A stretch of DNA of 57,028 bases, filler included, from Dugesia japonica (lineage: Eukaryota): assembly GCA_001938525.1 (NCBI GenBank). It is 5 parts of 5 records of this genome, joined end to end, with 100 filler letters (N's around TTAATTAATTAA, not from the genome) between each part and the next. Parts side by side here need not be neighbours in the genome. Positions count along the whole stretch, not along the records: positions 1 to 18,937 come from MQRL01586133.1; positions 19,038 to 27,948 come from MQRL01643258.1; positions 28,049 to 37,729 come from MQRL01484527.1; 2 more parts are not named here. One strand, 5' to 3'. Shown in pieces: positions 4,801-37,515 of this stretch (its first letter is position 1; every line of letters begins with the position of its first letter). The notes beneath the pieces were generated by a model. The model was not told the origin of the DNA. It searched no databases and saw only the letters and a list, made by a program, of their open reading frames with translations. Position numbers and translations under genes: made by a program.

Positions 4801-7800
4801 TAGCAGATTTGTCTATATTTATATATTGTTTACATTTAAGTTGGCAAAATAGGAAGAGATCGAAATCGAAATTAAAGCGTGAATTACTGGAGAAAAAACA
4901 AAGTAACAGTATGCTAAAATATGTCGTCAACGTGTCTAATACTGCATTCACTCACAGTAGAAATGTAGAAGTAGAAGCTCACAGTCGCAATATGGCAGTT
5001 GAAAATACAGATACTGATGGTTCTGGTGACAAACTTGAAGAAAATGATAATGAGGCAACTAATAATATTATTTTTGAAAGTGATCCACAAAAAGAAAACC
5101 CTGTAATAATTTTGATTCAAAAAAATCCGATATTGAAACCGCAGAAAAAATCTAATCTATTAGATTTTTAAGACTCTGGTACATGACCAAGTAAAATATC
5201 TAAATTGCTTTAATTCAGCATGGTCCTGTTCAAATAAATAATTTCGATTTTCATATAGACAAAAATAAAAGATCTTTCTCTAAAGAATATTGCAATAGAA
5301 AAGTTCCAAACGGCTAAATTCTAAAAAGACGATGACTAATATATTCGAAAACTATAAACAAAGTATGGTGTTTTCCATGTTAACTGTTTATGGATACCGA
5401 AACTGATGTATCATTATACAATAATAGTTTTAATGATTGGATTTATTTAAGTCAAAGGCTTAAAGCGCATAAGCGATCAGTGCATCATATAAAATCTATG
5501 CAAACTTCAAACTGAACACAATATAAACATTGGTAATATAATAGATCAAGAACATGAATGGATAATTAGTATTAAAACACTTCGTTGGAAAAAGGTTTTT
5601 GAATGTATAATCGGAGCAATTTTATATTTATCTGAACATAATTTAGTTTTCTGAGGAAGTATTAATACGCTATATTCACCGCACAATGGCAACTTTTAAN
5701 GANTATTAGAACTGATTGCTCGATTTGATCCGGTTTTAAAAGATCATCTTAATCGTACTACCATTCAAAATGGCAAGAAAAAAATGGAGAAACTGTTAAA
5801 TGTATGTCTTAAAAAATTAATTTTAATATAAAAATAATTCTTTTTTTAATTGATTTTAAAAAATTGTGTTAAAAATATTGCCTTTTGAGTATAACATAAA
5901 TAAAATACTAATTGGATAAGTAAATAAGTAAATAATTTTAAAAAAAAACACAAAATTTAAAATTTTTAAAATTTATATACAAAAAACAACACAAAATTTA
6001 AAAATTTTAAATATAATATAATAATTGTAAAAAAAGAATTGAAAAAATTCCTAACATATAAAATTTATTATCGAATAAAAATTTTTAAAAAGTTAATTTA
6101 ATAATAAAAATTAAAATTCTTTATTAAATAAACCAATAAAATGTAGATACAATCTAAAGAATTGAGTAACAAAGATCTATTGCATTGAATACATCAAGAA
6201 GCCAACATGTTCCTGAAGAAGACTATTGTCGAAAATTTGAACTTGTTTACAAATAAATTTTATTTTGATCGACGTTTTTTCTTTATTTTAATGAAAACTG
6301 ATATTATCCACATAAAAATGAAATCAGAAAATTATTATATATGTATGTACGGTATATATATTTTTGTTTAAGTTATGCAATATGGTAAATAACTTATTGA
6401 AATATGTTATATATGGAACGATGTGATGTCAATCATATTTTATATTAGTAAATTATTATAGCAGATCCAAATCTCTTAGGTTGAAAAAAAGCAAAGGAAA
6501 TTAATAAACAAAAAAGCCCCGCTGCTAATCTCGCACACGGCCCCGCAAATGTTCGAGCCGGCGCTGTGTTTCAGTCTTGTTCAAGTTTCTAAAATTAAAA
6601 TTTTTTAAATGTACTTTAAAACGTTGTTTTAAATTTATGCATATTTTGTTTTTATTTTTCATCAAATTTTACAATAAGTTAAAAATAAAGAATATTTAGC
6701 ACGTTTTATATTAAAAATCAATTTTTATATGACCTTGTTATAAAAAGAGTATTTATTTGAAATCATTCGATACATTTAATAAAAACGGTTAAATTTTTTA
6801 TTGATAAATCATGGAACTCTNNNNNNNNNNNNNNNNNNNNNNNNNNNNNNNNNNNNNNNNNNNNNNNNNNNNNNNNTGTTTTAAATGACAATTATTTAAC
6901 ATATGGATATTTTTAATCGATGTCCTTTATTGAAATTTGTCTGAGTTTGCAACCCTACTCGAAGATCAAAGAAAGTAATACAAAAAAATAAAAATATATT
7001 CATTTTATTTTAAAATAAGAAATAATGTTACAGAAAAGTTGAGAATATTATTATTATTATTAAAAAATAAAAAACGCCATTTAAAATAAAATTTTATTGT
7101 TATATATTTCGACGGAGCAACCACCATCATCAGACAAAAATGAAAAAAAACGAGTTTATTCAGTCTGTATTATTTAAAAAATTCAAGTAATTATACTGAA
7201 TATAAGATATCTATAATCATAATTCATAATTTTTAAGTGTTAAAAGTTTTTTCTAATAAAAATGTTTTTATAATAATATTTTTTAAAAAATACAATTTTA
7301 AAACCCATTAAAAAAAGGTTTTTCAAATATTTAAAAAGATTTTGATTTGGAAATGTATTAAAATTTTTTTATAAAAACCTATAAAAAATAAAATTGACAA
7401 ATTAATTTGAAAATTACGAAGTATAAAAAAATTATAAAAACCTATAAAAAACAAAAATTTTATAATAATTCAAAAATTTTAAAATATTTTAAAATCTAAA
7501 CAATTTTAATTAATTTAGTCGAAAAAGCTGTCTGTATATTAATGCTTGGATTATGAAATCTAACCATTAAAGCTTCAAACAGCACTATCGCGAAATAATT
7601 TTTAAATTGTTTAGACAAAATTTCCAAATTTGAAATTTCCACATTCACATTACATTTATTTTAATTTTATTTTTATGCTCAGCAATATTACTACCATCAC
7701 CAAAACGATTATGATCTTGAACCCTTATACAAAGATGACGGGCAGTCTATCCAATGTATGTGATATCACTCCCATAACATTTAAATTGATAAAAAAAGTT

Positions 7801-10800
7801 AGAACACAAACCAATCGGTTATGGGGTTGAATATGGGATTTATTAACAAAGCTATTAACAATCTTATGTGAAGTAGAAACAATAAAGGCAGATCCTTAGC
7901 AGCTTTCAGAATCGATTTCTTAAATTTTTATAACCCTAAGAATAATGAATTAATAAAACAAATGACCCAACTTATTTTGACACAGTGTTATTAGGTTCAG
8001 CATTATTCAACAGTTTCAATCTTTTTATCTAAATCAGTATTATTACAAACCATTATTTTATCAATTGCCTACAAAGTCAATGAATTTAAAAATTGTTTTC
8101 TACTTGTAAAAATTAAATATGAATAATTAACACTACAAGATAACTGTAGATATAGTTTGCCATATTATAAATTAATTTATGTGATTCCCAAAAATTACAA
8201 ACTCATGTTTCAGATAAAAAGGCGGCGAGTGTAATTGTTACTCGTTACCTTATGAAATTCTTACAGGATAGTGAGTATCTTCCAAATTTAAAATTAAATA
8301 GCTCGAGAAGCATCCCTTTATAATCAATTTCATTTATTGATATATTTTGAACTGCATATTTTGATTATTAAAAAATTAAAGTGTCCATTTAGTCACTATA
8401 CTGTTATTTATTATGTATAATAAATAATCGAAAACCTTCACGCTAAATAAATCAATAAATTGGAGTTCAATAAAATACTGTGTTAAAGCTTCAGTTTGAC
8501 AGGAATCTAACATAATGATTTTTTGAATCAAATTCGCGTAAAATAAGATCGAGTAAAACCAAAATTAGACGTATTACCCATTCATAATTTTAAAAAATTT
8601 ATTTTTATATATTTGCGTCTCTTTCAATTGCTGCACAAATTATATATTTGATGCTGTCTAATTATTAAATTCCAATTTTCAAGAATAATCATTATATCAG
8701 ATTTCATTTTCAATAATTTTACCGGAATTTTTTTAAAAATGCCAGATAGTTTTGAAAATTGTTTATTTTACGAAACCTTTTTTGTTTTGGCACAGAAATA
8801 TCAATTTAAAATTACCTTCAATGTTTGCAGTGATCTAATCCGTTCCGATTGACTGTTTTTTATTTGTTTTAAGGAATTTGAAAAATCATTTAAAGTTTGT
8901 TTGATCTTGGATTCAAAATTTTTCATTTGATTAATTTTTGCGCTAATATTAGACTGTTTTTCTTCTGATTCCATTTTAATGTTTGAAATCTGTGATAAAT
9001 ATTTACATAACAATTTAAATAATTAAATACGAATTTGTTTAAATATATTGTTTTATAAAAATAAACTTAATTTTAAACGAATGTAATTGTAATACATTTT
9101 TATTTGTTAACATTTTGCATCGATAAAGATGAACAGATCCATAATTTGCTATTCAAAATTTAATAGGAAGAAGCAAAAACTTTCGTGGATTCTGTTGTGG
9201 AGTATTATATCCAAATAGCTTGATCATGTAGTTAACTTAATATATTCGTGAAAGGCTTCATTATAACTAGAAATATGAACTGACAGAAACGCAAATTAAG
9301 CATTGGATACTCTAAAATATTGTTAACGAGGGCATTGAAGTATTTATATAACTTATAGTTGATATTATTTACTCTACAGTTTTTCCAGAGCATAACTCTG
9401 GAAGTGTGCTTGTTAACATATTGACTATATCAAGTGCCGCTCGGGTACATATAATTCCATTTGTTTAATTTTTGCTTGCATCTATCATGTCTGCAATGTT
9501 TTTATATATTTTTTAATATTATCTTATAAAATGTATTTTTAAAAATATGCAAATTCGAGTCATTCTGCGCATAATATTTAGTCTGTTAAGTAATTAACTA
9601 AATTTCAAATTCTTGATTAATTGTAAATCAAATATGTAACCCGCGTAAACTTTATTATTGACTTGATCCTATAAAACATTGCTAATGAGAAAGTATATTA
9701 TATTAAAGTATATCATTCATAATATTTCTAAAGTATTACATAAAAGTTTAGTAACAGTAAGAACAGTGGTAAGAACCCAAATATAACTACATATTAATTT
9801 TTGAAATTTTTTATTATGTATATTAACGGATATCCCCAAATAATATGACTTATATTACTTAACAGTTTAACCATAAAACTGAAAAATTTGGTCATATTAT
9901 TTGACACTTTCCAAAATAAGACATCAGAATTAATATTTTTTAAAAAGACATGATTTATTAAGCATCAGTAATTTCAAATTAGTTTTCATAATTCGGAACT
10001 CAATTATTTCATCCATTAGTCTTTCTTCAATCACCAGAATCTCTTAGCATAGATAATGCTTGTGATTTACATAGTAATGGACGTAAAAAAGAAAATTAAT
10101 AATATCGTTATTTTTTTAATCAATGGTCATATTATTTGGCTAGTCATATTATTAAATATTATGATTTAAGCCAACCAAAAAAAAATAATCATCTTATTTG
10201 GTGTAGTCATACAATTCGGCGATATCAGTTAAATATATTAAATATTCTTCATTGTTTGACTACAACTGTAGAAAATAAATAAGCAAATATTTAAATAACC
10301 TTTGAAATATTTTTCTTCACATTCATTTGGCTATTTGTAATGTTAAGCAATAATTCATTAGTTTTCCGAGTGTAATTTTGAGAATTTTCGTTATGTTTCC
10401 CGATATTTTTTATTGAGTATAATAAATAATTGGTGTTGTTTCTGAAAATATCGATTAAAGCTTCTATAATTATAATTCTATATTATAACATTTACTGAAT
10501 AAATTGTTTAAAATATTAAATATTTAAATTTTCGATGCTGGTTTGTTATTTAACTCCGAAAGTTTTTTAATAAAAAAAAATTATAATTTTAATATATTGA
10601 CAGTTATTGATTGCAACAAGATAATAATTAATATAATTTAATTATTCTAATTTTATGAATCTTTTAACACTTTCAAAAATAGTTAATGACAAATAAGCAA
10701 TGTTGCATCAATGTTCTGCCTACAATAGAATAGCTACATCGTGTTACAATCATCTAAAAATGAACCATTATATTTCCCTTATTGATCCGATAACATGCGT

Positions 10801-13800: not shown

Positions 13801-16800
13801 ACTTAACAATTTCTTGTGAGTAACACAATATCCTTTTTCGTGATTGTTTAAAGTTCGAGAAACATATGATATGACCTTTTCCAATCAGTTATCCATTATT
13901 TGACTCAAACCCCTCCCCAATTGCTCCAAAGCTAGCATCAGTATCCAATATTATTTCACCCCTATTATTTGGGAAAGTCAAAATCGGAGCACTATACAAT
14001 TTTATCTTCAGAGATTGAAAACTATATTCACATTCTTTTGTCCATTCAATGTTTTTTTCTTGTCCTGTCGTCGTTGCATACTATGATGCTGCAAGTAAAG
14101 CATAATCTTTTATAAAATGCCTGTAATAATTTATTATTCCTAAGAACGCTCGTATTTGCGTGGCACATTTTGGCGTTACGGCTGCTCGAATTCTTTTGAT
14201 AGTTTTATCATTTGTCTCTAAACCTTTAGGGCTAATTGTATGACCTAAAAAATTCAGCTTCTGGGAATTGTACACATATTTATTGGGATTTATTTTTAAA
14301 CCCGCATATTTTAGTAGCTGAAAAACTTTACCAACTCGTTTGTCGTGCTTCTCTTTAGTTTTTCCATTTATTAAAATATCATCCAGATATATTAATACTC
14401 CTTTGTACAACATTCCTTCAAATAATTTATGCATCAAGCTTTTAAATGTTGCTGGCGCAGTACATAATCCGAAAGGCATTCGATTAAAACAAAATTGACC
14501 CATCTTTGTACTAAAAGCCGTCTTCAGTTTTAGTTCTTCACTTAGTTCAATTTGATAATATGCTTGCCCTAAATCTAAAGAAAAAAATAAAACTGATACT
14601 TTAAGCGTATCTAATAATAATTGAATATCTAGAACTAGAAACGAATACTTTTCTGTAATTAAATTCAATTTTCTATAATCAATACACATTCTTATCGTCC
14701 CATCTTTCTTTGGTATAATTTTCAATGGGGAATTTAATGAACTTCTGCGACTTCTAATATTTTTGATTTTCTCAGATTTTCTAACAATTCATCTATTTTA
14801 TTTTATAAAAGCATTATAGACGATATGATTGAAATTATAACTTCATCGGTTCAAGGTAATGATAATAACTAATATTAAGTTCCTGAAGAAGACGATTGTC
14901 AAAAATTTGAACATTTTTACAAATACATTTTATTTTGATCAAATCTTTTTCTTTATTTTAATGAAATCTCAAATGTGGTTAATGGTTAAGTCCAACAATT
15001 ATTCTCACAATAGTCGTAATTATAAAATATTAATTTAAATAATTATTTAATAGTAGATGATGTAGAGAAAATGATGTAGAAATAGTTGAAATAGATGCAA
15101 CATCAGAGGAAGAGATGAACGATATTCAACCAAAAAATGATATTATTGCCGAGAAATTGATTGATGCACAAGCAAATGATGTCAATATTGATGAGGAAAT
15201 AATTGATATACCTCCAAATGATGTCATTTTTGATGAAGTAATACCTGATATGCCTACAAATAATGATATGATGAATAATTAAATGACTGGTTCACAGTCC
15301 GATGTGAAAATACATGATAAAGAAAATACGATGAAGACACATTGATTGCATTTTTACGTGATTAATAAAGAACATGTATGATTTCAATAAATTTTTCTAA
15401 AAATTGTCTTTTGTGTGTGTTATGTTACATAAATATTTCAATTGTAATGCATAGATATCAATAAAATACTACCAAAAATGCATAGAGGTCAATACAAAAC
15501 ACAAATATTACATTAGTGACATTACATTTACATAAAAAATGTTTACAAAATTGCAAAGAAGTCATTTTAAGATGCATAGAAATCCACAATGTTTTTTAAA
15601 TTTCCAAGTATAATATAGGGAAAAACAGCTCAGAAAATACATAGAAGTTATTAAAAATATTTACAAAAATTTCAGATTACATAGATGTCAATACCGATTA
15701 CATAGAAAAGTTTTCAAAATACATAAAGTTAACAGTCATTGCAAATAATTCTCAAACTTCATAGATACCAATACATAAGAATTGTAAGTGTGTGCGTGTG
15801 TTCATAAGTTATAATTAAATACAACAAATTAAAAATTTTTCATAATGATTTTTTAATAATTTTATCCACTTATAATTTTTAAGTAGTTAAATATAACATC
15901 TATATCATATATACATAAATGAAATTTAAAATTTTTCATAATCATTTTAAAATAATTTTATCTACTTATAATTTGTAAGTAGTTAAATATATCATCTGTA
16001 TCATAAATACATCATAAATGAATTTTAAAATTTTTTAAACATTTTAAATAATTTTATCTACTTATAATTTCATTTAAAATTAAAGCTTCGATCAAAATTT
16101 TTGTTATTGATATTGATATTGGATAGCAATTCGATATTTCGACTAAGTCTTCTTCAGGAATTGACTTTTCCTGAAGATAATTCCTGAAGAAGACTTAGTC
16201 GAAATATCGAATTGCTATCAAATATCAATAAAAAAACAAAACTTTTGATCGAAGCTTTTATTTTAAATGAATTCTGTAAAACGATCAATGGTTATGTCCA
16301 ACAATTATTCTCGCAATAATTGCAATTGTAAAATACTTATAATTTGTCAGTAATTAATTTATACATTTTTTTTCAATTAATTTCAAATTTTTAATTAAAA
16401 ATCACGCGATAATTTATCCAATTAAATCGAGTGGGCCACTTTTAAAAAGTAAAAATAATTCTGGTGGATTAAAACAAAATAATCAATTAATTTGGATATA
16501 TTTCAGTACCAAGTCAAAGTTCAGCCCAGTAAGTTTTAATTATTTTCATTGATTAAAACAAAATAATCAATTAATTTATTTATATTTCAGCACCAGGTCA
16601 AAGGTCAAACCCGTACATTTGCACATGGTCCAAAAGTCAATCCACCAAATTTCTAGGCCAGTTCAAAGTTCAGGCCATTGATTTTCGAAGCCACTTTGCC
16701 GGCGGGGGGAGGTTGTCTAGTGCGCAACTATCCCTCTACTCGTACTTACGTAAAACCAATAGTGAGATAACTGTGGCAAATCTTTGAATGAGATCAAAAT

Positions 16801-17508: not shown

Positions 17509-17639
17509 CTGAATAATAATACAAAATATAATTAATGTTAAATTATTTTTTTATAATAATTATCGTTTTTATTATGACTTTTATAATTAATGAACTTATT
17601 AAATTGTTACTTTAAAACCGAAAATAAAATTAATCTTTG

Positions 17640-18937
17640 AGTATCGAAACTTCAAAAATGGAATAGAGGACCGGAATAGAGAGTAACTCCATGAAAATTT
17701 TCTTTTAAATATTCTTCTATAGTAATTTTCACAATATTCCTATTTTTACCATTTGATTCATAGTGATATAAATAAAAAAACAAAAAAATCAAAGGGAAAA
17801 TAAAGAAAATAATATATTAAGCGGTGAAATTAGTAAAATAAAATTAAAAACAGAGAATATAAAGAGACAACAAGCTAAAAAACTAAAATCAATTAATGAA
17901 AATAAGTAAAAATATAAACAATTTTTCGTGATTGTGATAAAGAGAAAATATTTAGAAATGAGAATAATAATAACCTGTTAACCAAAACTCCAAATTTCAC
18001 CATGAAGAAAAATGAATTTAATAAAAGAAGTAAAATCAATTAAGCATAAAACGAAAATAGAAAAATAAGCAATATATATCGTGAGAACAGATAAATTATA
18101 TAATCAAAGGACATTAAAAAAGATAGAGAAATATATTAAAAACTGGGGAAAAGATTATTGCCATGTCAAAAAAATCGCTTGTTATAACTATTCAGGAATT
18201 ATTAAAATATAGAAGAAATTTTTTTTTTATATATTTTTGATAAATAAAATAAAAAAATTTTATCTATTACTTAAAAAAGGTTTTCAATATTACCAGTCAA
18301 AACTTAATATATTAAAACAAATTGATATTGCCATTTTGCAATTTTCCATCTATTAATAATTATTTAAACAAATATTCAACGTCCTAAAATATTGAAAATA
18401 CTAAAATATTAAAAAAAAATTGAAAAATCTTTATTTAAAAAATTCAAAAAATATTATAAATTTACAATACAATTTTTTAAAAATATTTATATTTGTATAA
18501 AAAAATAAAATAATTAAAAAATTTTCTTATATTTTCTAATTTAGAAACAGAAATTGAAATTTGCAAATAAAAAATTATCAAAAACTATTAATTTTTACAG
18601 CAAACACAATAATACCAAAAAAATAATTAAAACCTCAAAAGAAACTGTTGAAAAAAAGTAAAATTATGTAAAACTAATAATTGAAGGTTCATCATTGTCA
18701 AAAAACGCAACAATCAATGAAAATAATTAAAATACAATAACCAAACCGCAGTAAACACATTTAGAAAGTGTAAAAAATCGTAATATAAATAATTAATTTG
18801 AAGAAAATGTGTTAACTGATATAATTTTTACAATTACAATTCCTGACGAAGACAAAGTCGAAAATTCGAAATTCTATCAAGAACTAAAAAACATTATGTT
18901 AAAAAAGAAAAACAATATTTTGATCGTAGAGTTTATT
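17640..18937 (+). mobile_element. Highly decayed PLE relic ending in a family-A pseudo-LTR
   Basis: A-rich decayed coding-like sequence (EGSSLS resembles the RT MGSPLS motif) ending in the hammerhead and TTTTGATCG tail. Truncated by the contig end. Confidence 0.45.
18837..18873 (+). ncRNA. Minimal type-I hammerhead ribozyme, family A
   Basis: CAATTC-CTGACGA-A-GAC(AAA)GTC-GAAA-AT-TC-GAAATT. Confidence 0.7.
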
Positions 18938-19037
18938 NNNNNNNNNNNNNNNNNNNNNNNNNNNNNNNNNNNNNNNNNNNNTTAATTAATTAANNNNNNN
19001 NNNNNNNNNNNNNNNNNNNNNNNNNNNNNNNNNNNNN
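18938..19037. other. Artificial contig spacer (44N-TTAATTAATTAA-44N)
   Basis: Exactly 100 bp with a six-frame stop linker, repeated identically four times in the window. Confidence 0.97.
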
Positions 19038-22329: not shown

Positions 22330-23860
22330 TAAAACTCGATGTTTTTCCTTTGGCTGATTTCTTTCAGCAATTTAGACAAAAATCAATTGTTCACAATAGA
22401 CTTGAACCGCTTACTTTCTACCTTGATGACTCTTACTGATCCAATTCAGTTATTGACTGACAAGGACATGTAAACTTTCTTTGATGGTGGGATTAGAGTA
22501 GGTTTTATCTTTGTTAACAAGCATCATGTGGTTTCTGATAAAAACACTGATTTGTTATACATTGATATAAATAATTTATAAAGTTGGGCTTTAAGCCGAA
22601 GCTTCCGTATAAGGATTTTGATTGGGTCTTTTCTGGTTTCGATGACTCATTGAATAATTATTTGAATATAAACTTAGATTCTTTATTTTACAATTGTAAT
22701 TATTGCGAGAATAATTGTCAGACGAACCATTGATCATTTATCAAAATTCATTAAAATAAGAGCTTCAATCAAAATTTGTTTTTTGGTTTTTGGTATTCCG
22801 ACTTTGTCTACTTAAGGAAATGACTTTTTATTCTTTGACTTGGATTTTGAATTGACTTTTTTCTTTATTTTATGGTTATACTTCTGACGTTCCTAAATTC
22901 CTATAAATTACTATTGATTTACATGATTATTTGTTTGATCTTCCCGTTGCTGCTGAACACTAAAGTCCATCTGGATCTACGGTGACAAANTTTTTGATAA
23001 CACATTGTTCATTTGAAATAGTGGCAAATATACTTATAGTTAGGTGTAAGAATTAATAAAGTTTATAGAGCTGTTATTTTTATGCAGGACAATATTTTTA
23101 AGAAAATTTATTGATGATAATACCCAATTAAGAGCACAAAGTAATTCAGATCTTGATGAAAATTATTATAAACTCTTGAATAATATTCTTTATTCGAAAT
23201 CTGTAGAGAATTATAAAAAGAGAATGAATCTCAGACTTTGTAATTCAGCAAAAAAACTTGTAACTTATATGTCAAAAGCAGGGTTTAGGAAATTTATTAT
23301 GATAGATGATGACTTGATTACTGTCTTGCTAAATAAGGAATTGGTTTGGTTAGATAAACCTAATTACATTGGTCAAACAGTGCTTGATATTTCTAAATTA
23401 AGGATGTATCAATTACAGTATATTGAACTTGAGAAATCTAGGAAGGAAGAGAATTGTAAGATCAATATTGTTGCTGGTGATACCGATATCTTTTAAAGTT
23501 CAAGATATCAAATTAGATAAATTATTAAAACTTGTGGTAAGAAATAATCTGCTTGAAACTTCAAATTATTATAAAATACATCCTTTTTATAGTGATGAGT
23601 TGAATTTAGTTGTAGGAAAGGTCTCGAGACCTAAGTGCTAATGTCTTCTTAGAAGAAAAATAGTCGATGAAAGCTAAAGGTGTAATATTGAAATATAATG
23701 GTATTAACAATCCGTAATATCTTAATTGTTATAAAAACAATCAAAAGGTTTCAATGAAAAAATTCAAGATAAGGACTAAAAATCATCAGTTGTTTAGTTT
23801 TAATGATTCCAAGAAAGCACTAACTAACACATATGACATAAGAGTATGAGTAAAAAAGAA
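22330..23860 (+). pseudogene. Polinton/adintovirus-type protein-primed family B DNA polymerase, decayed
   Basis: GGIRVG, LLYIDINNL..WALS..LPYKDFDW, YKLLNNILYSKSVEN, LDKPNYIGQTVLDISKLRMY, AGDTD, KAKGV, in the expected order across frameshifts. Confidence 0.88.
22691..22860 (-). mobile_element. PLE family-A solo pseudo-LTR inserted in polB, hammerhead degenerate
   Basis: Reverse complement of the family-A tail. 12-bp TSD TTCTTTATTTTA (22679-22690, 22861-22872). polB frame (LDSLFYGY) rejoins on removal. Confidence 0.75.
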
Positions 23861-25550: not shown

Positions 25551-27896
25551 TTAAATCAATATTTTTTGTTTGATGAACATTTCGTCTACGATTTCTTTGC
25601 CTAATCTTACACTAGCTAACTTTTTGATGGTTTCAATCATGGTTTTAAATCCATTTTTGTCAGTCGATTGTTTGTTAAATTCATTAAAGAATTCAATGTT
25701 GGAATCCTTATTTTCTAAAAATCTTTCAAAAACCTCTGCCAAAAACTCCCATAGCTTTGGAACATCAGACAATATATCATTAGAAAATTCAAAGATTTCT
25801 TGACAGCCACCTAAAAAAATTTGTTTTGAAAGAATTCTTTCTTGTTTCAGCTTCAGAAAAAAGTCTCCTAATAAGATTCGATTAAAGGTTTTCATTTCTA
25901 ACGTTTTATCAATCAAATCATTTATTATCTTACGAGGATTTGAAATATCTTTCCAACGTTTTGTTGATAATTCACTTTTCATTATTTCACTGAAAATTTC
26001 TTCGGCAATGTTTTCATCAGTTTCACTATTGATTATCACTTTCTCTTTATTAATCTGTTTGTCTTTATCATTATTATAATTTATCTTTATTTCATTTCTG
26101 TTATTACTTTCAAATTTTCCATGATTGTAAGAGGATTTCTCATGTTTGACTATGTCAAAATTATCATTGCTAAAACTGATTTTGTTAAATCTTTCAGCCT
26201 TTGATAAAATAATCTCATCTTCTGTTTCTTTTTTCAATTCATCTAACGTTTTTGGTACAATAGCACTAACGATTTGAACATTACGCAATTTCCAATTGCG
26301 TTTTTTCATATCCAAAATATCTTTCAATGCAAAACGGGTCTTACTGTCTAATTCACTGGAGTTTGATAAAACAAATACTTTATCTAAGCAAAGTGAAATA
26401 TCTTTGCAATATTTCTGTTCTATTTCTTTACCTACTATCTGAATCATATTACACAATGCCTCAAGAGCTTTGGTATCGTTTTGTTGATTAATCAAGCTTT
26501 TTAAACAGTAAATGATAACCTTTCCTGTTATCACTTTTTGTAGATATAACTCCGAAATGAAATGAATATTACCAAAATATCTATCTTTAACCTTTAAAAC
26601 TTGTTCCTCTAAGCCTTCTGCATAAAGAGCTTGTATTCTTTGGTCAGTTTCCAAATTCATTTTTTCCAAACATTTTGACCGAATACTTTCCATTTGAATA
26701 TATAATGATTCCTCAAACATTTCTTTGTTTTTCTTTAATAAGAGACTTTTAAATATTTTATTTTCTTCGCCGATTTCAATAAATTTCGAGGAAAATAATG
26801 AATAGGTTTTCGAGTAAGATTTTCCTAGTACAGCATTAGCAAATACTTGTTCTGTTAAAACTGTCATATCTTCTTCAGATTTGATTTCAAGACCTAAAAT
26901 TTCAGTCAAACATATTTCCAGATTTTCTGGAGCCATTTTATTTAAAATTCTTTTAATATTTTTTTCTAGGATTTTTGTTTGATCTACATCGTTTTCTCTT
27001 AATTTCGGAGGTACATATCCATTTTCATAATGAAGAAGTTTCTTTATTTTACTGCCTCGTTCCCAATTTAATGAAGTTTCTTCTTTCGATTGCAAAGCTT
27101 CTAAATAATCTAAATTATTCACTGCAATGGAAAATATTTCTTGAAACCACGAAGACATAAATGGAACGTCTTTTGGAATAGAATTAAATGAGCTGAACTT
27201 TAACAATTCGCGTCTTGAAATAATAATCTTTGATGGTTTAAAAATTGATGTCGATAAAATGTCTTCAGATAATCTTTCCGGAATGGTTGAATTTTGTTCT
27301 AAAGATTTATTTTCTGTTTGTCCTGATGTTATTTCATCGTCATTCTCAACCATATCTATTTGTTCTGTTGTTATTTCATCGTCATTCTCAACCATATCTN
27401 NNNNNNNNNNNNNNNNNNNNNNNNNNNNNNNNNNNNNNNNNNNNNNNNNNNNNNNNNNNNNNNNNNNNNNNNNNNNNNNNNNNNNNNNNNNNNNNNNNNN
27501 NNNNNNNNNNNNNNNNNNNNNNNNNNNNNNNNNTGTTGTTATTTCATCAACGTTCTCAACATTTTTTGAGAACAAACTTAAATTTCTTCTTTCAGTTACT
27601 AGATTTTCTAAAGTATTTTCATCTAAATTTGTTGTAATAGTTTCATTTTTATTTTCAATTTTCGCATAGTTAATTAAATCAATTTCGACTAATGCGACAG
27701 GATCTATAACCGCTAATGCCTTTCTTTCTCTTTTCTCAGGTCTTTTTACCGGTGTATTCTGAAATGGTGTTAATCCTGGTGGACAAGATGTATTTGGATC
27801 ATTAGGATTAATATAGCAAACCACATAACCAAATTGAGGGTAAAAATTACTTTGATTAAAGATTTGATTATTTTCCATAAAATTTATATCATTCAT
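25551..27896 (-). CDS. eIF4G: Translation initiation factor eIF4G-like protein (PABP-binding motif, MIF4G, MA3; no W2), intronless
   Basis: KRERKALAVIDP matches the metazoan PABP-binding motif. ISRRELLKF sits at the eIF4E-binding position. MIF4G: IKRILNKMAPEN...RYFGNIHFISELY...KTRFALKDILDMKKRNW. MA3-like: DILSDVPKLWEFLAE. An internal N gap lies in a 42-bp repeat. Confidence 0.9.
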   Translation of the reverse strand: MNDINFMENNQIFNQSNFYPQFGYVVCYINPNDPNTSCPPGLTPFQNTPVKRPEKRERKALAVIDPVALVEIDLINYAKIENKNETITTNLDENTLENLVTERRNLSLFSKNVENVDEITTXXXXXXXXXXXXXXXXXXXXXXXXXXXXXXXXXXXXXXXXXXXXXDMVENDDEITTEQIDMVENDDEITSGQTENKSLEQNSTIPERLSEDILSTSIFKPSKIIISRRELLKFSSFNSIPKDVPFMSSWFQEIFSIAVNNLDYLEALQSKEETSLNWERGSKIKKLLHYENGYVPPKLRENDVDQTKILEKNIKRILNKMAPENLEICLTEILGLEIKSEEDMTVLTEQVFANAVLGKSYSKTYSLFSSKFIEIGEENKIFKSLLLKKNKEMFEESLYIQMESIRSKCLEKMNLETDQRIQALYAEGLEEQVLKVKDRYFGNIHFISELYLQKVITGKVIIYCLKSLINQQNDTKALEALCNMIQIVGKEIEQKYCKDISLCLDKVFVLSNSSELDSKTRFALKDILDMKKRNWKLRNVQIVSAIVPKTLDELKKETEDEIILSKAERFNKISFSNDNFDIVKHEKSSYNHGKFESNNRNEIKINYNNDKDKQINKEKVIINSETDENIAEEIFSEIMKSELSTKRWKDISNPRKIINDLIDKTLEMKTFNRILLGDFFLKLKQERILSKQIFLGGCQEIFEFSNDILSDVPKLWEFLAEVFERFLENKDSNIEFFNEFNKQSTDKNGFKTMIETIKKLASVRLGKEIVDEMFIKQKILI
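27327..27562 (-). repeat. 42-bp coding tandem repeat (DMVENDDEITTEQI) within eIF4G
   Basis: Units at 27327 and 27369, and a diverged unit after the gap. The gap is probably a collapsed array. Confidence 0.85.
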
Positions 27897-27948
27897 TTAT
27901 TATATATTATATTTTACATATATTTCAAACAAATTATTTAATAAAAAA

Positions 27949-28048
27949 NNNNNNNNNNNNNNNNNNNNNNNNNNNNNNNNNNNNNNNNNNNNTTAATTAA
28001 TTAANNNNNNNNNNNNNNNNNNNNNNNNNNNNNNNNNNNNNNNNNNNN
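27949..28048. other. Artificial contig spacer
   Basis: 44N-TTAATTAATTAA-44N. Confidence 0.97.
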
Positions 28049-29532
28049 GGGGGGGGGTTCACTGAATGTGTGCTGGCTATTACTCCTACTATCTATCTAC
28101 TCTACTTCTTTCAGATTTGATTTTCTACTGTTTCTACTAATAGATTTAGTTTTCTTGTCATGAAAAATTCTTGAAAAATAAATAAATTTAAAATATTTAA
28201 GTATAACAAAGTATCTTAACAAGAAATATAATTTTCTCAAAACAAAATATGCTGATGATTATTTGTCAGAACTAATTTTAATATAAAAGAGGAGAATTAG
28301 CATAATTTATTTTTAAGAAATATTGTAGAAGAATTTTATTAAAACAAATCAGACTAAAATATGCATTTTTAATGAGAAAAATAATTTTGTTATTTATCAT
28401 GAAACTTGATTTCTATATCATGCTGAGCTAATCGTTTGAGTTTCCTGGCTGTGTTTTACTCACCATAGCTATTCCTTCGTTTCTTTTTTTAGTCTTGTTA
28501 TTCATTCCATTCAATACACGAGTTAATACTCTTTACTTTATTCACTACAAATGTAGATAGATTACTTGGAAAACGAACTATTATATTCAATAAATTATTA
28601 ATTAAGCTGCGAGTCACGTAATTTTTTTACTAAAACAAACATTTAATTTACTTAAAATTGATGCTGGATTACAATATTTTTCTCAAGAGTGAGTTTAATT
28701 TAAAAGATTTTTTCCGTTACACTTTCATAATTTTTTATAATTTGATCCAAAACTTTATTATTACATAAAAATAAGAATGGTTTATTTTAAAACGATTAAA
28801 TTTTTTGTGTCACGTGGACAATTTTACTCTGCAATATCTTCAAAAAGTTTAATTACATTAATTTTTTATATACATTAAAATTTAATTATAATTAAAAGTC
28901 ATTTAAACTTTTAATTCATATCTAATAATTTGTATTAACTTTTATAACTCAAGCATTACAGACAAATTCACATATTTTATTTTATGTAAATATTTTATTA
29001 AAGAATAATTTTAAACAAGCATTTAGATTTACAAAAACTTTCAATAATTAAAAAAATTTGAAATTTTAAAATAAAATAAATTCTTAATCTTAGAAATTAA
29101 AAAAATATAAAATTAAAAAGTTTTAAACTTTTAAATTTTATAAATTCATGAAAATTTCACAACTAGAAAAATTAATCCTTTTTCTTATTGAGAGAGAAAT
29201 TCTGAAATTTATAAAAATTAAATTTCAAAAAAAAATTAGAAAAATAATCATAACTAACAAGCAATTAATGATGACCATGAATAGCATAGAATTCAGATTA
29301 ATTTGTAGTAATTGCACAAATAATGAAACTTTAGCAACTAATTAGGTTAAGAGAATATAATAATAATTATAAATTATAAACCTGAGAACAACTGAAAGTA
29401 ACCTAGGAACTTTAAATCAAAAATTAGAAAAAAATTAAGATTAACACGTAAAATCTTTTCAAGTAACAAAATAATATTTGAAAGAAAATTTGAAAAAATT
29501 TCTGAGAAAAATTAAAAGGCTATAATAATGTA

Positions 29533-30188
29533 TTAGGGTGGTGAATAATTATTGTGACTTTTTTCTGTAAAAATTGGCTTTTTTTAATGTCATTGATTTT
29601 ATTATTTTTGAAAACAATCCTCTTCTAATTTTAGATAGTAAAGATGCGCGTATATAAAAGTATATCTATATTTGCCATATCATGTTGTACCACTTCGAAA
29701 AATGTTGGAATGGAGCACAGTCATTTCGCTATCTCAATGAACCTTTTGGTAAAGAAACAACAACCACGATAAGGCATGTTTACATGTTGAGCGTCGTGTC
29801 ATCGAATCTATTGCCAATAAGAGCTGGGAACTGCTTCTTCATCAGTCACATTATCCTGCAAAAGATCACATATACTGTTACGTCAATCAATTTCTGAAAA
29901 ATTGCCTTGCGAAAAACTTTTATGATAATTTGGATGACTTGATGGTAACCACCAAAGAATGGATTGCCACTAAGAACAGCAACTTTTTTCGCCCGTGGAA
30001 TTGACTGGCTGCCAATGAAATGGAAAGCAGTAATCAAAGTTGCTGGTGAATACGCACCAGAAAAATCAATCGAAAATGTTTTTGTTAACTGCTGATATAG
30101 GTTTTGTTGAATTTTGTTAAAATTTGACTGTTGAATAAAATTTATTTGGTTAAGAAAAACCATGAAATACTATTTATTAAAGCCATGA
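29533..30188 (+). mobile_element. Internally deleted mariner element
   Basis: N-terminal MLYHFEKCWNGAQSFRYLNEPFG and C-terminal FARGIDWLPMKWKAVIKVAGEY. Left TIR TA|TTAGGGTGGTGAATAATT; right TIR degenerate. Confidence 0.8.
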
Positions 30189-30990
30189 TACCTCATTTGT
30201 TGTTATTTATTTGGGTAAGTGGCTTGCAAATAACGTTTTTGATAGAAAAATTGCTTATCTTATTTATAAAATTTCTTAACTTAATTGAAAGATCCTAGCT
30301 ATAAATTTTGCGACCTTTCCAGAATTCAGTCTTTCTAAACATATCAAAGTTTAAATGAAAATATATCCAAGCCTTGATTAAACTGATTTCGGAAATTACG
30401 GGCACTACATATATAAACCCACTACAGCAGTGTTTCTCAACCGGGGAGATCAAAAGTAAATGCAGAGTTAGTAAGCGATGGTAATCGATGAAAGATTAGT
30501 CTTTATAACTTGTATGCCTCATAAAATAAGAACATCTGAGCATTAATATAACAGAAATTCGGTCAAAAATTACAAACATATGTTTTTTGTTTCACAGTAA
30601 CCTAACTCGACCTTATAAATAGTTGAATACTGCCTAGCAACAGTGGTCGCAAAACTCAATGCCATCCTTCTCTGACATTGTTACTTTTTGGATGTCCTAG
30701 AAGTCCTTGTTAGCTTGCATTTATCAGTGCACCGATTTCTCTTGTCTAAACTTTTCGTCTAAATTGAGTCACGAATTACTAATTTATCTGCTAATTAACC
30801 CATAGAATACAAAAGATACGTAGATGATATTTTCCTTATTTTTAAAGACCAAGATGATATACCACCTTTTCTTGAATATAAGAACAGTTCTCATTAAAAT
30901 ATAAAATTCACTATAGAAGTTGAAAAAGAAGGTAAACTACTATTCTAAGATGTTCTGGTTTGTAGACAGGGTTGCAACTATAATAATTCA

Positions 30991-31645
30991 TAATTACAAT
31001 TATTGTGAGATTAATTGTTGGACTTAACTAATGATCGCATTTGAGATTTCATTAAAATAAAGAAAAAGCTTCNNNNNNNNNNNNNNNNNNNNNNNNNNNN
31101 NNNNNNNNNNNNNNNNNNNNNNNNNNNNNNNNNNNNNNNNNNNNNNNNNNNNNNNNNNNNNNNNNNNNNNNNNNNNNNNNNNNNNNNNNNNNNNNNNNNN
31201 NNNNNNNNNNNNNNNNNNNNNNNNNNNNNNNNNNNNNNNNNNNNNNNNGATTCTTAATAATTAAAATAACTATAACAATTATAACAAAAAAAATTAGAAA
31301 AAAAATTAGAGTTTTAATTTGGTAAAAATTTTAATATTAATAAAATACATATTTCAATATTTTAATACTTAAATACATTAATTAATTTTTTTAAAAAAAC
31401 ATTTAAGAGATTTTCAATTAAATCTAATTAAAAAGAATTTTTGAGATTAAATTTTAAAAAATTATAATTTAAATAGACCAATAAATCTTCGATAAAAGAT
31501 TAATAATTTTGTAGCAAAGATCGATTGTTATTTTGAATACATCAGAAAGTCATCATTCCTGAAGAAAACAAGTGTGTCGAAAATTTGAATTTCTTTACAA
31601 ATTCATTTTATTTTTATCGAAGCTTTTTCTTTATTTCAATGAAAT
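30991..31645. mobile_element. Family-A PLE truncated insertion with inverted ends, nested in the family-C PLE
   Basis: 13-bp TSD CTATAATAATTCA (30978-30990, 31646-31658). Minus pseudo-LTR tail at 30991-31072 and plus pseudo-LTR with hammerhead at 31555-31645. Host RT frame rejoins across it. Confidence 0.8.
31555..31590 (+). ncRNA. Hammerhead motif, family A (helix II weakened)
   Basis: ATTC-CTGAAGA-AAACAAGTGTGTC-GAAA-AT-TT-GAAT. Confidence 0.55.
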
Positions 31646-32383
31646 CTATAATAATTCATTTTTTAATAAACTAACTGGCACAGGACTATATACTACTCTT
31701 AAAAGATTTTTTGATGATCGATATAAAAATGAATCAATAAATGTTTGGTTCATCGAGTGTGGTGTATATCATGATGCTTTGAGATTGCTGATGATGGTCT
31801 TAAAAGATTAAACAGTAGTTTTTGAGCTAGTGAATATAACTGAAAAACTATTGATAATAATATACGGAGTACTCTAAACAAACTGGTTTTAGAATCAAAT
31901 AATAACCAATGCTCACTCGTCAAATATTTTGATTAAAATAAATTTAGATTAATTTTCATTTAAAAAAAATTCAAATTATTTAAGCAAAAAATCCAACACA
32001 CCAAAAGCTTTGCTCGCTAACCTAGTTTATCAATTTAATTTTAACGAGTGTGATGCAACGTACCTTGGAGAGACAAAAAGTCACCTTTGCACACGTACTA
32101 GCGAGCATATACAATTTAGTAGTAAAAGTTCGGTATTTGATCATGCATATTGCTGCAAAAATAGAAAAGGCAAAATAAAAAAAAATTTGATGAGCAGTAG
32201 TTTTGGTAACTATTTTTAAAAAATTGCATGCGAGGCTTTAAGAATTTGGTTGTATAATCCGATTCTTAATAGTCAGATTGACGCACATTAACTTTTAAAT
32301 TTATTAGTATCTTATTTAATTGGATAGATTACGTCACAGGTTTTATTAGACAGTATATAAACAATTTCCTACTTATTTAAACA

Positions 32384-32425
32384 GTAACTGATGATGGGCA
32401 TAGATTTATTCAAAACATGTCTTAC
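32384..32425 (+). ncRNA. Hammerhead relic, family C (GAAA>AAAA)
   Basis: GTAA-CTGATGA-TGGGCATAGATTTATTC-AAAA-CATG-TC-TTAC. Helix I GTAA/TTAC, palindromic CATG loop, at the PLE 3' end. Confidence 0.6.
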
Positions 32426-32497
32426 AAATAAGAATTTTTAAAAAATTGAGTGGTTTTATTATATTTAGATCAAAGCAATTTGTAGAATGCTTTTAAA

Positions 32498-32498
32498 T

Positions 32499-32546
<48 letters not shown>
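32498..32546. repeat. (CA)n(TA)n compound microsatellite between two convergent PLE 3' ends
   Basis: Directly visible. Confidence 0.95.
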
Positions 32547-32549
<3 letters not shown>

Positions 32550-32597
32550 TTTAAAATAAAAGCTTCGATCAAAATTTGGTTTTTTGGTTTTGATAAT

Positions 32598-32633
32598 AAT
32601 TCTATATTTCGAATTTGTCTTCGTCAGGAATTG
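32598..32633 (-). ncRNA. Hammerhead motif, family A, at the 3' end of the coding PLE
   Basis: CAATTC-CTGACGA-AGACAAATTC-GAAA-TA-TA-GAATT. Confidence 0.7.
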
Positions 32634-34002
32634 ACTACTTGATTCATTCAATATTTATCTGAACACTAGTAATTTTTTTTAATTTATTTTATTTATTTTT
32701 TATAAATTACATTGTTTTTAGCATTGTCTTCTTTAATTAGTAATTCTTGATGTTTTTTCTATGTAGTGTAGAAATGCAGCCTGTTCCTAGTGTTTTCCAT
32801 GTTATGTGATGTTGTTGTTCTGGTAAAATGTTATGTTTGTGTTGAAAGTGTATGAAGACTTCACTTTTTTGTTTCAAATGTTCCTTAATTCTTGCTGGGA
32901 TTGTTTTGCATGTTTCATCTATTTATGTTTCTTGACAAATGGCGCATGTTATTTTATAAGTGACATTTTTCTTATTGAATATATTTCTACCATCACAAAT
33001 GCATTTGGGTCCACAAAATTTTGTCTTGGTTTCTGTAATTGGATGCCCAAAGAAGCTTACGTTTTGAATATAATTCTAGGATTGCGTTTAGGTCTAGAAT
33101 TGTTTATTATATGTTGCATGATTTGGCTACATTTCTCTTTAATATAAGTTACTTTAATAACTGTGTTTGCTTTTGGTTTTATTTTTTTTTGTTTTGTATT
33201 CAAAGATAAATATTTCGATAAAATTTTATTTGGGTAGCCGTTATTTAAGAATTGGTTTTTTATCAATTTGAGAGAGATCAATTTCATTTCTTCATTTAAA
33301 GATAGTCTCTCAGCTCGAATTCTTTCACCTTTAATTATACCAATTTTNNNNNNNNNNNNAGTATTACTACTCCAAGGTAATATATGTCCACTATGAAATG
33401 GTTTCATATATAATTGGGTAGTTAATATTTCACCAGGTTTCTTTTCGATCAAAGTATCCAGAAAAGGAATGTAAAAGTTAATTGACTTTTCTAGAGTGAT
33501 TTAATGTTATCATTTATACCATTGCCTAATTCTAAAATGTTCTTTAAAGACGAATTAGTCACAAAGAAAACCTCATCTATGTATCTAAAACATATATGAA
33601 TGTTCTTGTCTGATTTAAGAATTATTTGATTTTCAATAAAGTTCGTGAAAATTATCGCTAGAAATGGAGATNNNNNNNNNNNNNNNNNNNNNNNNNNNNN
33701 NNNNNNNNNNNNNNNNNNNNNNNNNNNNNNNNNNNNNNNNNNNNNNNNNNNNNNNNNNNNNNNNNNNNNNNNNNNNNNNNATTATCTCTGGAATATTTGT
33801 ATGTTCTTGGTATCTTTCAAAGAAGTCACTTACAATATCAATGAAATTTTCAGGTCCTTCAATTGGAATTGATTCATACAAATTTGTTACATCTAATGAA
33901 CCAAATTCGTCATTAGCCTTCCAGTCATAATTTTTAATTCATTCGATAAACTCATAACTGTTCTTTAAATATGCCGGAATGAAATGTAATAGTGATTTAA
34001 AT

Positions 34003-35358
34003 GGTTACATGTCAAATCGACACATATTTTTTATAATTTATAATTTTTTAATATTTTTTATTTTTAATAATTTTTACTGGTATAATTTGATTTAATTTTT
34101 GGTATAATTTTTAATAATGTATTTTTTGTATTTTTTGGTATAACGTTTACTGTATTTTTTGTATTTTTCATTTNTAATAATCGACACAAGAATAATTTAG
34201 TATAATTTTAAATAATGTATTGTTTAATTTAATTTGTGTCAGAGCTTGATCAGAAAGATAAATAGTGTTGGTCCCAAAAGTGATTTTGAAACTAACATCG
34301 ACGTTAGATTTAAGTCAAAGTCCTTGGGAGCTTGAGCCTCTGTTCCAATCGATGATGTTAGGAACATGTTTGATCAGCTGGCAACTACATTTCTTGATGA
34401 AAATTATTATATTGATATACTGACTTACTTTTTCTCAACATACATTGAAGGTGCAGCAGGCAGAGATCCTCAGTTTTCAATCAGGGTTTGGAATCATCAC
34501 GAGACATTAACGAAAAGTCACCGAAGACTAAAAGCTGTTACGAGGGCTTCCACAATGTACTCAATTCTTGATTCCACTGCAGTCATACCGGTATTTGGTA
34601 TTGGTTTGATGATCTCAAAAGGACATTTCTTGCCACAGGCTTACTCTAGCCAATGCACAAAAAGTTCGTCAAGAAGTAAAAAAACAGAAATATCATTTTT
34701 CTGCAAGAGACAGTTTCAAACGGTGAGCAGGAATATCAAAAGGAACAGGATAAATTGAAATATTTGAGATTATTAGACAATTCGCAGTAGTAACAAGTTA
34801 AGCTAAACTTTTAATTACTGTATAATGTAATTCAGAGAATAAACTCTTTTCTTTTAGTATTTTCTCTTCAAATTATTTTCATTTTTTCTGTCTTATATTT
34901 TATATTTTAATTTTTTTACTTATTTTAATATATAAGTTATCTGACCTTACATATAATGTGCCAAATTTATAAAATTCATGTGTTAAAATTATTTATAAAT
35001 AAAATTATTTAAAGAAATGTCAATCTGAATTAAAATATAAAAAATACATTATTAAAAGGTTTGCCCTTATGACTTCAACATGCTGCAATATGGAAGTTTA
35101 TTTAAATTTTAAAAAATTATGAAAGAGATAATGAATTACTAAATTATTAAAAATGAAAGATACAAAAATTACTGTAAACATTCTACCAAAAAAATACATT
35201 ATTAAAAATTATACTAAATGACTTATTATAATTACCAGAAAAGGTTATTAAAAATAATAAAAAATATTAAAAAATTATAAATTATAAAAAATGTGTCGAT
35301 TTGTCTGCGTCTATTTGTTTTTGTGTCGATTTGTCATGTTTCGAGTGGTCTGGTCATC
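34003..35358 (+). mobile_element. Mutator-like (MULE) element, internally deleted
   Basis: Long (~200 bp) imperfect TIRs and 9-bp TSD GATTTAAAT/GATTTTAAT. Transposase C-terminal motifs YFFSTYI..PQFSIRVWN..EGFHN at 34300-34790. The PLE RT frame rejoins on removal. Confidence 0.85.
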
Positions 35359-37424
35359 GATTTTAATATATCTACCATAAATTTGCGTAATGCAGTAGAA
35401 GGAGTGTCAGAAGCGTTGACAATAGGTCTTCCGTTCATTGTTGTTTTGTGATCTTTAGGAACACAGTACATCCATGATCAAACTAGTTTATGACATTTAA
35501 CTGTTAACAGTAAAGATTTTGTTGGGTCTTCATATTTTTCTGCTATTTGAATTAATTGTTTGTTGAATTTAATTTCTTCTGTAGTTGGTAGTCTTTGTGG
35601 TCTATTGTTTCAAAATTATTTAAATGTTGAAAGAAATAATTTTAAAAAATAATTTGTTTAAATAAATTATATATAACATAAATTGCATAAGGCAATTTTG
35701 GGAAGAAACTTTCAGAAAGCAAGAAGAATTTGATAGAAGAATTGTTTGTGTTTTAATAAAGTTTTGACTTAAAATTCTTATTTTAATTAAATTAATTGAA
35801 GAAAACAAATAAACCTAACAGTATAGAAGGTCACAAAAATGTGCAGGGTGCAACAAGGAAGAGGGTATGGAAAACTACTTTTTGTCTACGTATGCCATGA
35901 CTATTTTGTTTTGTTTAAACAATGTTGTGATCATTTTGATGAAACGCAAAAGACATTTATTCAAATTTACTTTAATTCTTATTAAATAAATATACATATT
36001 CCATTTAACTTGTTTTATTCATGTAAGTGCAAATATTAGTAATTATGATATTCTTTATCTAAAAACTATATTAAACTAATCGGCAATAACACAGCCATGA
36101 TTTTGAAAGCTTGAAATCATTTGATATTTTCAAATTAGTCATGGAGTTTACACATTATTTGTATTCAATGGCAGATTCATTTCTTATTTAGATATCAATC
36201 CACTACATCAAATATATAAAGATGAATATAGGAATATTATATAATCCAGTCATGTCTCAGAACCGTAAATTCATTAAATTCATATTTCATCCAATTAAAC
36301 TATAGTTATTATTTTACTAATTTGTTGTTTTAATGTTTTGTTGAATTAAGTTTATTTTAAAATACGCTTTTAACTGATTCAGACCGAGACTTCAATGGCA
36401 CTTCAACTGAAAGCCAATTCAAAGATCATCTTTAAAATTGCAATTATAATGAATTCAAAACTTATTGCAACAATAATTTTCTATTAAAGTTTGTATAAAT
36501 GTATGGTTGGTACTGGTAGATATTATAATAAATTTTGATTTGGTTGACAACTTCATATTAAAGTTCCATTAAATTATCCTTATCGAATTTCAGTAAAAAT
36601 GAAAACTCTTAAACCATCATTGTAAATCCACTAGTTGAATTTTCTTTTAAACNAATAAATTTGTCTTAATTATTAGTTGATAATTATTTTTGAAAAGCAA
36701 TTTTCCAGAATTAATTAATGTAGATAATAAAAAACTAAATTCGAGTGAAAAACCTTCAAAACTGGACATCACTTAAATATAATAAAGATGATTTTATAAA
36801 ACTTTGAAATTCATTGTTAACTTTTTTCTGTATAAAATTAAAAGTTCTAAATTTTATTTACTTTTTTTTTATTTATTTAAATATTTTAAAACAAAAAATG
36901 TTTAATAAAAAATAATTTCTAATAAGAAATTATAGAAAATCTTTTTGATTTGCGATTTTTAATTTATTGAAATTTTATAAATGCGATCAACATTTGTAAT
37001 ATAATTATTATTTTTAAATTATTATTTTGAAGGCATTTAAATGAAAATGAATATTTTAATGAGGCTATAAAAAACAACCATGTAAAACACAATTCGATAG
37101 ACAGATCATACACAAACGAAAATCATTTATACATTCACAACAAACATCACAGTTAACAACAACAGTAAAACATTCATTTGTGGACAACCCAATGGCTCAG
37201 CCACCAGATTACAATCCAATCATGTTGCTGTGTTACCACAATCTCACGTGACNNNNNNNNNNNNNNNNNNNNNNNNNNNNNNNNNNNNNNNNNNNNNNNN
37301 NNNNNNNNNNNNNNNNNNNNNNTTTTTTTTATTACTATTTACTTTCAAACTGAAAATGCATTATAACTCTGCGGATACCATTGATATACAAAATTTGGTG
37401 ATGAATATATAGAACACGGTAAAA

Positions 37425-37515
37425 AATTCATAAAATAAAAGCTTCGATCAAATTTTTTTTTATATTTTATTTAGATAAATTCTATATTTTGACTTAGTCT
37501 TCTTAAGGAATTGAC
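37425..37515 (-). mobile_element. PLE family-A solo pseudo-LTR, hammerhead core mutated
   Basis: Reverse strand CAATTC-CTTAAGA-AGACTAAGTC-AAAA-TATA-GAATT...TTTGATCGAAGCTTTT. Confidence 0.7.

Follow-up and report, generated by a model that had tools for sequence, protein, structure and literature searches.

Nine dispersed copies of a short motif in a 57,028-nt stretch of the Dugesia japonica genome (assembly GCA_001938525.1; hereafter the window) are almost certainly minimal hammerhead ribozymes (min-HHRs), that is, type-I hammerhead ribozymes (HHRs) without helix III, carried in the pseudo-long terminal repeat (pLTR) of a Penelope-like element (PLE) with a C-terminal endonuclease (EN). They are best explained as 3'-end remnants of one PLE family with at least two subfamilies. 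By analogy with characterized elements, the intact copies probably cleave as assisted dimers, with a ribozyme that would be dispensable for insertion, a reading to which we assign a probability of about 65%.

Copies of the motif and their carrier element

The window consists of five AT-rich contigs (about 25% GC), joined at 18938, 27949, 37730 and 47261 by 44 Ns, 12 nt and a further 44 Ns. Named by the position and strand of C3, the copies are 6213+, 14883+, 16157-, 16184+ and 18843+ on one contig, 22816- on a second, and 31559+, 32627- and 37507- on a third (five, one and three copies, respectively). All nine belong to one repeat family, as the original prediction held. A covariance model built from them recovered all nine at 44-60 bits, a match by construction, and with nothing else above 15 bits it revealed no tenth HHR-bearing copy in the window.

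We searched the window with our own version of the min-HHR descriptor of Cervera & de la Peña (2014, PMC4209133), which defines a type-I motif with a helix I of 3-7 bp, cuganga plus an optional nucleotide, a helix II of 3-7 bp, a loop of 3-10 nt and the ending 'gaaannuh', with a C3-H17 floor of 24. Four copies matched it in full: 6213+ (6209..6242, +; C3 6213, H17 6238; 4-bp helix I, 3-bp helix II, AT insert), 16157- (16127..16163, -; C3 16157, H17 16133; 6-bp helix I, TA insert), its inverted twin 16184+ (16178..16214, +; C3 16184, H17 16208; TA insert) and 18843+ (18840..18870, +; 3-bp helix I, AT insert), which lies 70 nt from the contig end. By comparison, 500 local block-wise dinucleotide shuffles gave a single match in total (mean 0.002 per window). 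The family is characterized by a 3-bp helix II, a loop of 3-4 nt and a C3-H17 span of 25-26 nt; every copy has an extra A between A9 and G10.1 (9/9), G10.1-C11.1 is a G-C pair in 8/9, and H17 is never G (9/9).

The carrier was identified from a 47-aa open reading frame (ORF) piece near 33400, which led to a full-length 843-aa protein (P0001) with RVT_1 and GIY-YIG domains. Residues 316-841 of P0001 are colinear with 35641-32702 (-), at 68-74% identity in the main pieces (tblastn), and together with profile matches they outline a broken, 5'-truncated PLE ORF (32702..35641, -) with reverse transcriptase (RT), thumb, Cys linker and a GIY-YIG domain with CCHH. This ORF contains stops, frameshifts and N gaps and lacks its 5' third; judged from its sequence, the copy is dead, not coding. 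Another piece of this PLE family, from the thumb/linker region, lies at 2158..2459 (-). The Cys linker precedes the CCHH GIY-YIG domain, which by the features given in PMC8557442 points to a Neptune/Nematis-like clade. The linker also occurs in related proteins; compared with the CX2-5CxxC pattern of that clade, the CxxC spacing is exact in P0002 and P0007-P0009, but P0001 and the window copy have CxC.

Two junctions place the motif within this element. The copy 32627- lies about 75 nt past the point where the match to the PLE ORF ends, the placement of a pLTR after the ORF end. The original prediction had tied this copy to a coding PLE; the link to the ORF stands, but the PLE is broken and 5'-truncated. 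At the other junction, residues 2-21 of P0001 match 16282-16341, downstream of 16184+, at 75% identity, so that the 'tail' at 16267..16335 (+) corresponds to the first ~22 PLE codons, in frame from an ATG past the HHR. The repeat is therefore a true pLTR of the PLE, and the proposed location of type-I hammerhead motifs on PLE pLTRs is confirmed by a placement past the ORF end and ahead of the ORF start.

The 3' ends of the copies fall into two classes. A conserved ATG lies about 40-60 nt past H17, and 5 of the 10 readable copies (18843+ is left out because of the contig end) continue in frame for ~22 codons into the ORF, with a shared stop point. Three of these bear an HHR, namely 14883+ (ORF start 14961-~15029), 22816- (22751-~22684) and 16184+, and two have no readable HHR: a 3' pLTR part with an ORF-start tail at 1325..1447 (+; nhmmer E 1e-17, in-frame ATG at 1379) and another at 30986..31072 (-), whose upstream part is lost in an N gap. 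The other five stop ~4-9 nt from the ATG. Among the latter, the pLTR of 16157- stops just past its ATG at 16073, 37507- ends ~9 nt past its own ATG, and the element of 32627- terminates at ATG 32550, where it abuts a (TA)n(TG)n microsatellite. H17 is not the end point of any of the nine copies with an HHR. In the anole element PAc, the HHR cleaves only when the PLE protein is present, insertion does not require the HHR, and two internal RT starts in the ORF make an optional tail (PMC11167929). The two end classes within the ORF, together with the absence of ends at H17, agree with this internal RT initiation, and the genomic ends thus echo the model independently in a non-Poseidon PLE.

The copies 16157- and 16184+ form an inverted pLTR pair (16069..16271; self-BLAST 89% over 204 nt), a typical PLE inverted 5' junction whose read-through RNA folds into one hairpin (-122.8 kcal/mol). 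Self-BLAST of the window revealed no tandem array of the repeat, and a search of a prokaryotic contig collection with P0001 gave no further copies. Two candidate arrangements of a larger element were considered. That 16184+ and 18843+ (2659 nt apart) flank a full PLE was rejected: no PLE protein signal lies between them, the 900 nt ahead of 18843+ do not rise above shuffles, and no DNA there resembles the PLE body. The reading of 37507- as the 5' pLTR of the 35641-32702 ORF is unsupported, since it ends ~9 nt past its ATG and 35650-37430 contains no profile match.

Upstream of the motif, six of the nine copies (14883+, 16157-, 16184+, 18843+, 22816- and 37507-) lose similarity to upstream-extending copies ~4-20 nt from C3. 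In four of these six the terminal bases are directly duplicated over 8-10 nt, against a background of 15% for at least 7 nt and 2% for at least 10 nt; with n=9 these duplications are only suggestive. The clustered 5' ends may reflect an RNA whose 5' end is fixed and was re-copied by RT. The sequence at the start of the copy at 1325 (+) is too decayed to compare with the cleavage site. An AG precedes helix I in several copies, and it could be a 3' splice site as in D. virilis, a possibility with no other support; in D. virilis Penelope, both promoter and intron lie within the pLTR (PMC2377424). A more far-reaching proposal, which we consider rather doubtful, would make this family the size floor of natural PLE hammerheads, with a 25-nt C3-H17 span, a 3-bp helix II closed by a 3-nt loop and a shared all-A/U helix III of 4 bp. 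Its activity would depend on clamping by the family's own RT-EN dimer, the insert would be a subfamily self-recognition code, and the solo copies of ~100-170 nt would be run-off complementary DNAs that extend from the two internal RT starts to a fixed RNA 5' end just upstream of helix I. If this were true, genomic copies would report both ends of the PLE template.

Covariation, folding and the mode of cleavage

With the pairs of helix I, helix II and an intermolecular helix III specified, 85.9% of 99 cells are paired. The covariation score of 0.21 was reached by none of 500 shuffles, which ignore relatedness, and by no slid control, while the number of covarying pairs was not above shuffles (260/500 reach it). 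An A-U/G-C change in helix I of 6213+ and 14883+ is one of two clean covariation signals. Positions 15.2 and 16.2 are complementary in 9/9 copies (UA in five, AU in four), in agreement with the palindromic A-NN-U of the original prediction. In a tree of the downstream flanking sequence, the AT copies 6213, 14883 and 31559 group together with support as a subfamily, and the UA/AU switch needs two changes; because 18843+ is a long branch, a single origin of the switch could still account for the pattern. The predicted helix I covariation and TA/AT switch are thus real, but the covariation information comes down to two or three events. The copies are moreover not independent, 16157- and 16184+ being one inverted duplication.

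Conservation was compared by counting cells off consensus. The core departs from it in 7/99 cells, compared with 17/45 at N7, loop II and H17 and 33/108 in the spacer (p~1e-5, with cells that are not independent). Downstream, a 16-nt box outside the ribozyme is found ~20-50 nt past H17 in every copy (e.g. 16244-16259, +), separated by a variable spacer of 19-52 nt and followed by the conserved ATG. It contains what we take to be TaqI/HindIII-like palindromes, and a promoter or an RT-binding element are candidate roles for it.

Minimum free energy (MFE) folds contain helices I and II with the helix III region open in three of the four intact copies, 6213+ among them; the MFE structure of 18843+ contains no HHR fold. 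The palindromic A-NN-U cannot close a normal hairpin, and the proposal that the motif would act as a dimer is supported by analogy, but it is not new, having been made and tested in 2014 (PMC4209133). Under this proposal, two copies in a tandem read-through transcript would swap helix I strands, and pairing of their 4-nt palindromes would give a helix III of 4 bp common to both. Cleavage would then take place after H17 in each core, ~40-60 nt upstream of the ATG, with G12 as the base and the G8 2'-OH as the acid, following the usual chemistry (PMC6155905). An all-A/U helix III of 4 bp and a helix II of 3 bp would give very low unaided activity, and the PLE's own protein would probably chaperone cleavage, as for PAc. 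The ends of inserted copies are not set by cleavage; these copies would derive from uncleaved RNA, with RT starting at two sites in the ORF, ~+4 to +9 and ~+66 to +70. In the nearest-neighbour model, TA/AT heterodimers form only 2 bp and no full helix III.

Several observations weigh against cleavage by these copies. The motif as originally written holds in four of the nine, and the other five have core or helix II defects: 14883+ (14879..14912, +) carries G12>A and is predicted to be dead; 37507- (37478..37512, -) is decayed, with G5>T and G12>A; 22816- (22792..22816, -) is decayed by four core changes; 31559+ (31555..31590, +) has G10.1>A and a 6-nt loop II and is probably impaired; and 32627- (32598..32632, -) retains an intact core, but its helix II is cut to 2 bp by a C·U mismatch where the loop should be closed. 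An Rfam scan at E<=10 returned five matches and no hammerhead; the best, mir-4798, is below the gathering score and corresponds to the inverted pLTR hairpin. A lack of Rfam matches is what one would anticipate for motifs that lack helix III. With z-scores of -0.4 to -1.6, the folding signal is weak. In the nearest-neighbour model, which has no tertiary terms, the double hammerhead lies 4-6 kcal/mol above two monomers for all four homodimers (for 16184+, e.g., -2.8 versus -7.2 kcal/mol), and misfolded dimers are far lower in energy than it; poor unaided activity is therefore to be expected. No tandem of two intact, palindrome-compatible copies around an ORF occurs in the window. Finally, the 16-nt box is as conserved as the core (11/144 versus 7/99 cells off consensus, p=1.0), so that conservation alone cannot single out catalysis: among the nine window copies, the core stands above loop and spacer, as a ribozyme would require, but not above this box.

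These points bear on whether the fold might have been kept for a non-catalytic task of the pLTR, such as RNP (ribonucleoprotein) or RT recognition, translation control near the ATG, or an internal promoter or 5' untranslated region, with the hammerhead vestigial or a passenger. The absence of HHR-bearing copies ending at H17, a downstream box that matches the core in conservation and a dimer disfavoured in the energy model all fit such a role, as do the normal insertion of PAc HHR mutants and the lack of RNA-seq reads ending at the PAc cut site (PMC11167929); Naiads thrive without canonical HHRs (PMC8557442). We nevertheless regard it as unlikely, because conservation falls on the catalytic positions and variation on N7, loop II and H17, the last of which is never G; the palindrome survives a double change; and related min-HHRs do cleave (PMC4209133, PMC11167929). 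Alternatively, the PLE protein might clamp a monomer by holding A15.1-U16.1 across the 2-nt turn, with no partner RNA. PAc cleavage did need protein, on a pLTR-ORF template (PMC11167929), the intact copies in the window stand alone, and forming the dimer would cost energy. A clamped monomer would give no reason for 15.2/16.2 complementarity, yet this is found in 9/9 copies here and in 40/41 published examples without a loop (hand count), and the monomer was inactive in PMC4209133; we consider this mechanism distinctly improbable.

That the pattern arose by chance in AT-rich repeats, or through faulty assembly, might be suspected from the 25% GC, the relatedness of the copies by descent and the weak folding z-scores. 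This is already refuted by the shuffle expectation of 0.002 and by the position next to a PLE ORF, where PLE HHRs are known to lie, and elsewhere in the window a second PLE family, unrelated to the first, carries an HHR motif of its own past a GIY-YIG remnant. We retain assisted dimer cleavage of the intact copies as the favoured reading.

A second element and other contents of the window

Both HHR motifs of the second PLE family had been overlooked by the original prediction. The first (7097..7137, 7133-) has an intact core, a 5-bp helix II and a 4-nt palindromic insert and lies ~470 nt past a GIY-YIG remnant at 7860-7600 (-); its MFE structure contains no HHR fold. The second (32384..32425, 32388+) is decayed by G12>A, also has a 4-nt palindromic insert and lies ~110 nt past a GIY-YIG remnant at 32007-32279 (+). 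An RT remnant of this family is present at 30760-30975 (+). The two PLE families meet head-on near a (CA)n(TA)n microsatellite (32500-32550), on which the element of 32627- ends, with the 32388+ motif ~80 nt before it.

The RT of the main PLE is split by an insertion at 34013..35303 bounded by terminal inverted repeats (34013-34181 versus 35303-35143, 81.5%). An ORF fragment within it (34336-34758, +) has no Pfam match at E 0.01 and is presumably MULE-transposase-like. Other mobile-element remnants are found at 14081-14788 (-), 44721-45206 (+), 23050-23496 (+) and 52119-52505 (-), and include an RVT_1 fragment of LTR-retrotransposon type and a DDE_3 transposase fragment. Two of these four ORFs gave no convincing Pfam match; we take them to resemble Polinton-type polymerase/integrase pieces.

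Host-like genes were also present. An intronless-looking, eIF4G-like ORF (MIF4G and MA3) occupies 25551-27896 (-), and its nearest database relatives are 39% identical, which suggests a fast-evolving, poorly sampled host; a PH and SH2 adaptor-like ORF lies at 42386-43321 (+). Near-identical direct duplications around N gaps (4162-4747, 46449-46981 and 51526-51704) are probably scaffolding artefacts.

Comparison with known hammerheads

The GAAA-NN-UH motif, put forward in the original prediction as a new ultra-minimal variant, is the min-HHR of PMC4209133. The window copies share with that class the type-I topology, CUGANGA plus a nucleotide, GAAA-NN-UH, the absence of loop 3, the pLTR site, an occurrence mostly as solo remnants and the predicted dimer, and its emergent features (an extra nucleotide after A9, a G10.1-C11.1 pair and palindromic 15.2/16.2) are those seen here. 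The S. mansoni monomer was inactive in that study, while dimers and trimers cleaved weakly. In its Fig. S3, counted by hand from the PDF text with the GAAA column detached, the insert is 2 nt in 41/56 examples (29 CG, 5 GC, 5 UA, 1 AU, 1 CA), 4 nt in nine and longer in six, which contradicts the claim that PLE helix III loops usually have 4 nt; 15.2/16.2 are complementary in 40 of those 41. UA inserts occur in Nematostella, Schmidtea, C. remanei and Latimeria, and AU in Crassostrea (PMC4209133).

The differences from this class are of degree. By the same hand count CG is the commonest published insert (29/41), whereas helix III is all A/U in the window; a 3-bp helix II, here with a 3-4 nt loop, is seen in one of the listed examples, C. 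briggsae (1/56), most having 5-7 bp. The claim that the family is among the smallest hammerheads holds narrowly, for the C3-H17 span (25-26 nt versus 27 nt in C. briggsae, the shortest listed), but not for the total: with helix I included, published examples can be as small as 34-35 nt, less than the 37 nt put forward for the window (PMC4209133). Natural helices II of 2 or even 1 bp have been published (PMC3088659). The variants of Lünse, Weinberg & Breaker (PMC5785218), compared by title and review account, are likewise PLE-associated, with a very short palindromic stem III and dimer cleavage. Our literature search surfaced no paper on this particular family, and no size record can be claimed, as the alignments of Lünse et al. 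or bioRxiv supplements may list 25-nt cores. Both the architecture and the dimer idea were thus published in 2014, and the only increment is the 25-nt C3-H17 span.

The family accordingly adds one more to thousands of known PLE min-HHRs. Its value is modest: it offers an experimental construct among the smallest of its class, with natural TA/AT variants that suit a test of dimer specificity, and the purpose of PLE hammerheads (PMC11167929, PMC8557442) is no more testable with it than with PAc.

Canonical type-I HHRs and non-LTR retrozymes (PMC7229834; bioRxiv 10.64898/2026.07.22.740005) have the type-I topology and dimer mode in common with the window copies. Unlike these, which have a helix III of 1-2 bp with a loop, a 4-bp helix II and short tandem arrays, the window copies have a 3-bp helix II and neither a helix III stem nor loop 3, and they show no recognized loop 1-loop 2 tertiary motif and no tandem array of 170-400 bp. 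With Neptune/Nematis, as characterized in PMC8557442, the carrier shares RT, a Cys-rich linker, GIY-YIG with CCHH, pLTRs in partial-tandem or inverted arrangement and insertion at (TA)n; the window copy is dead, and the likeness is one of features. The elements differ from PAc (Poseidon, Anolis; PMC11167929) in clade, with a Cys linker in the window family, in a tail of ~60 nt rather than 30-40, and in the ATG, which in PAc is inside the HHR with an RT start at ~+111-118, whereas in the window it lies ~40-60 nt past H17 with ends at ~+4 to +9 and ~+66 to +70. PAc and the window family nevertheless have in common an HHR where pLTR and ORF meet, a pair of fixed 3' ends in the ORF that give rise to a tail, AT-rich targets and copies that appear to derive from uncleaved RNA.

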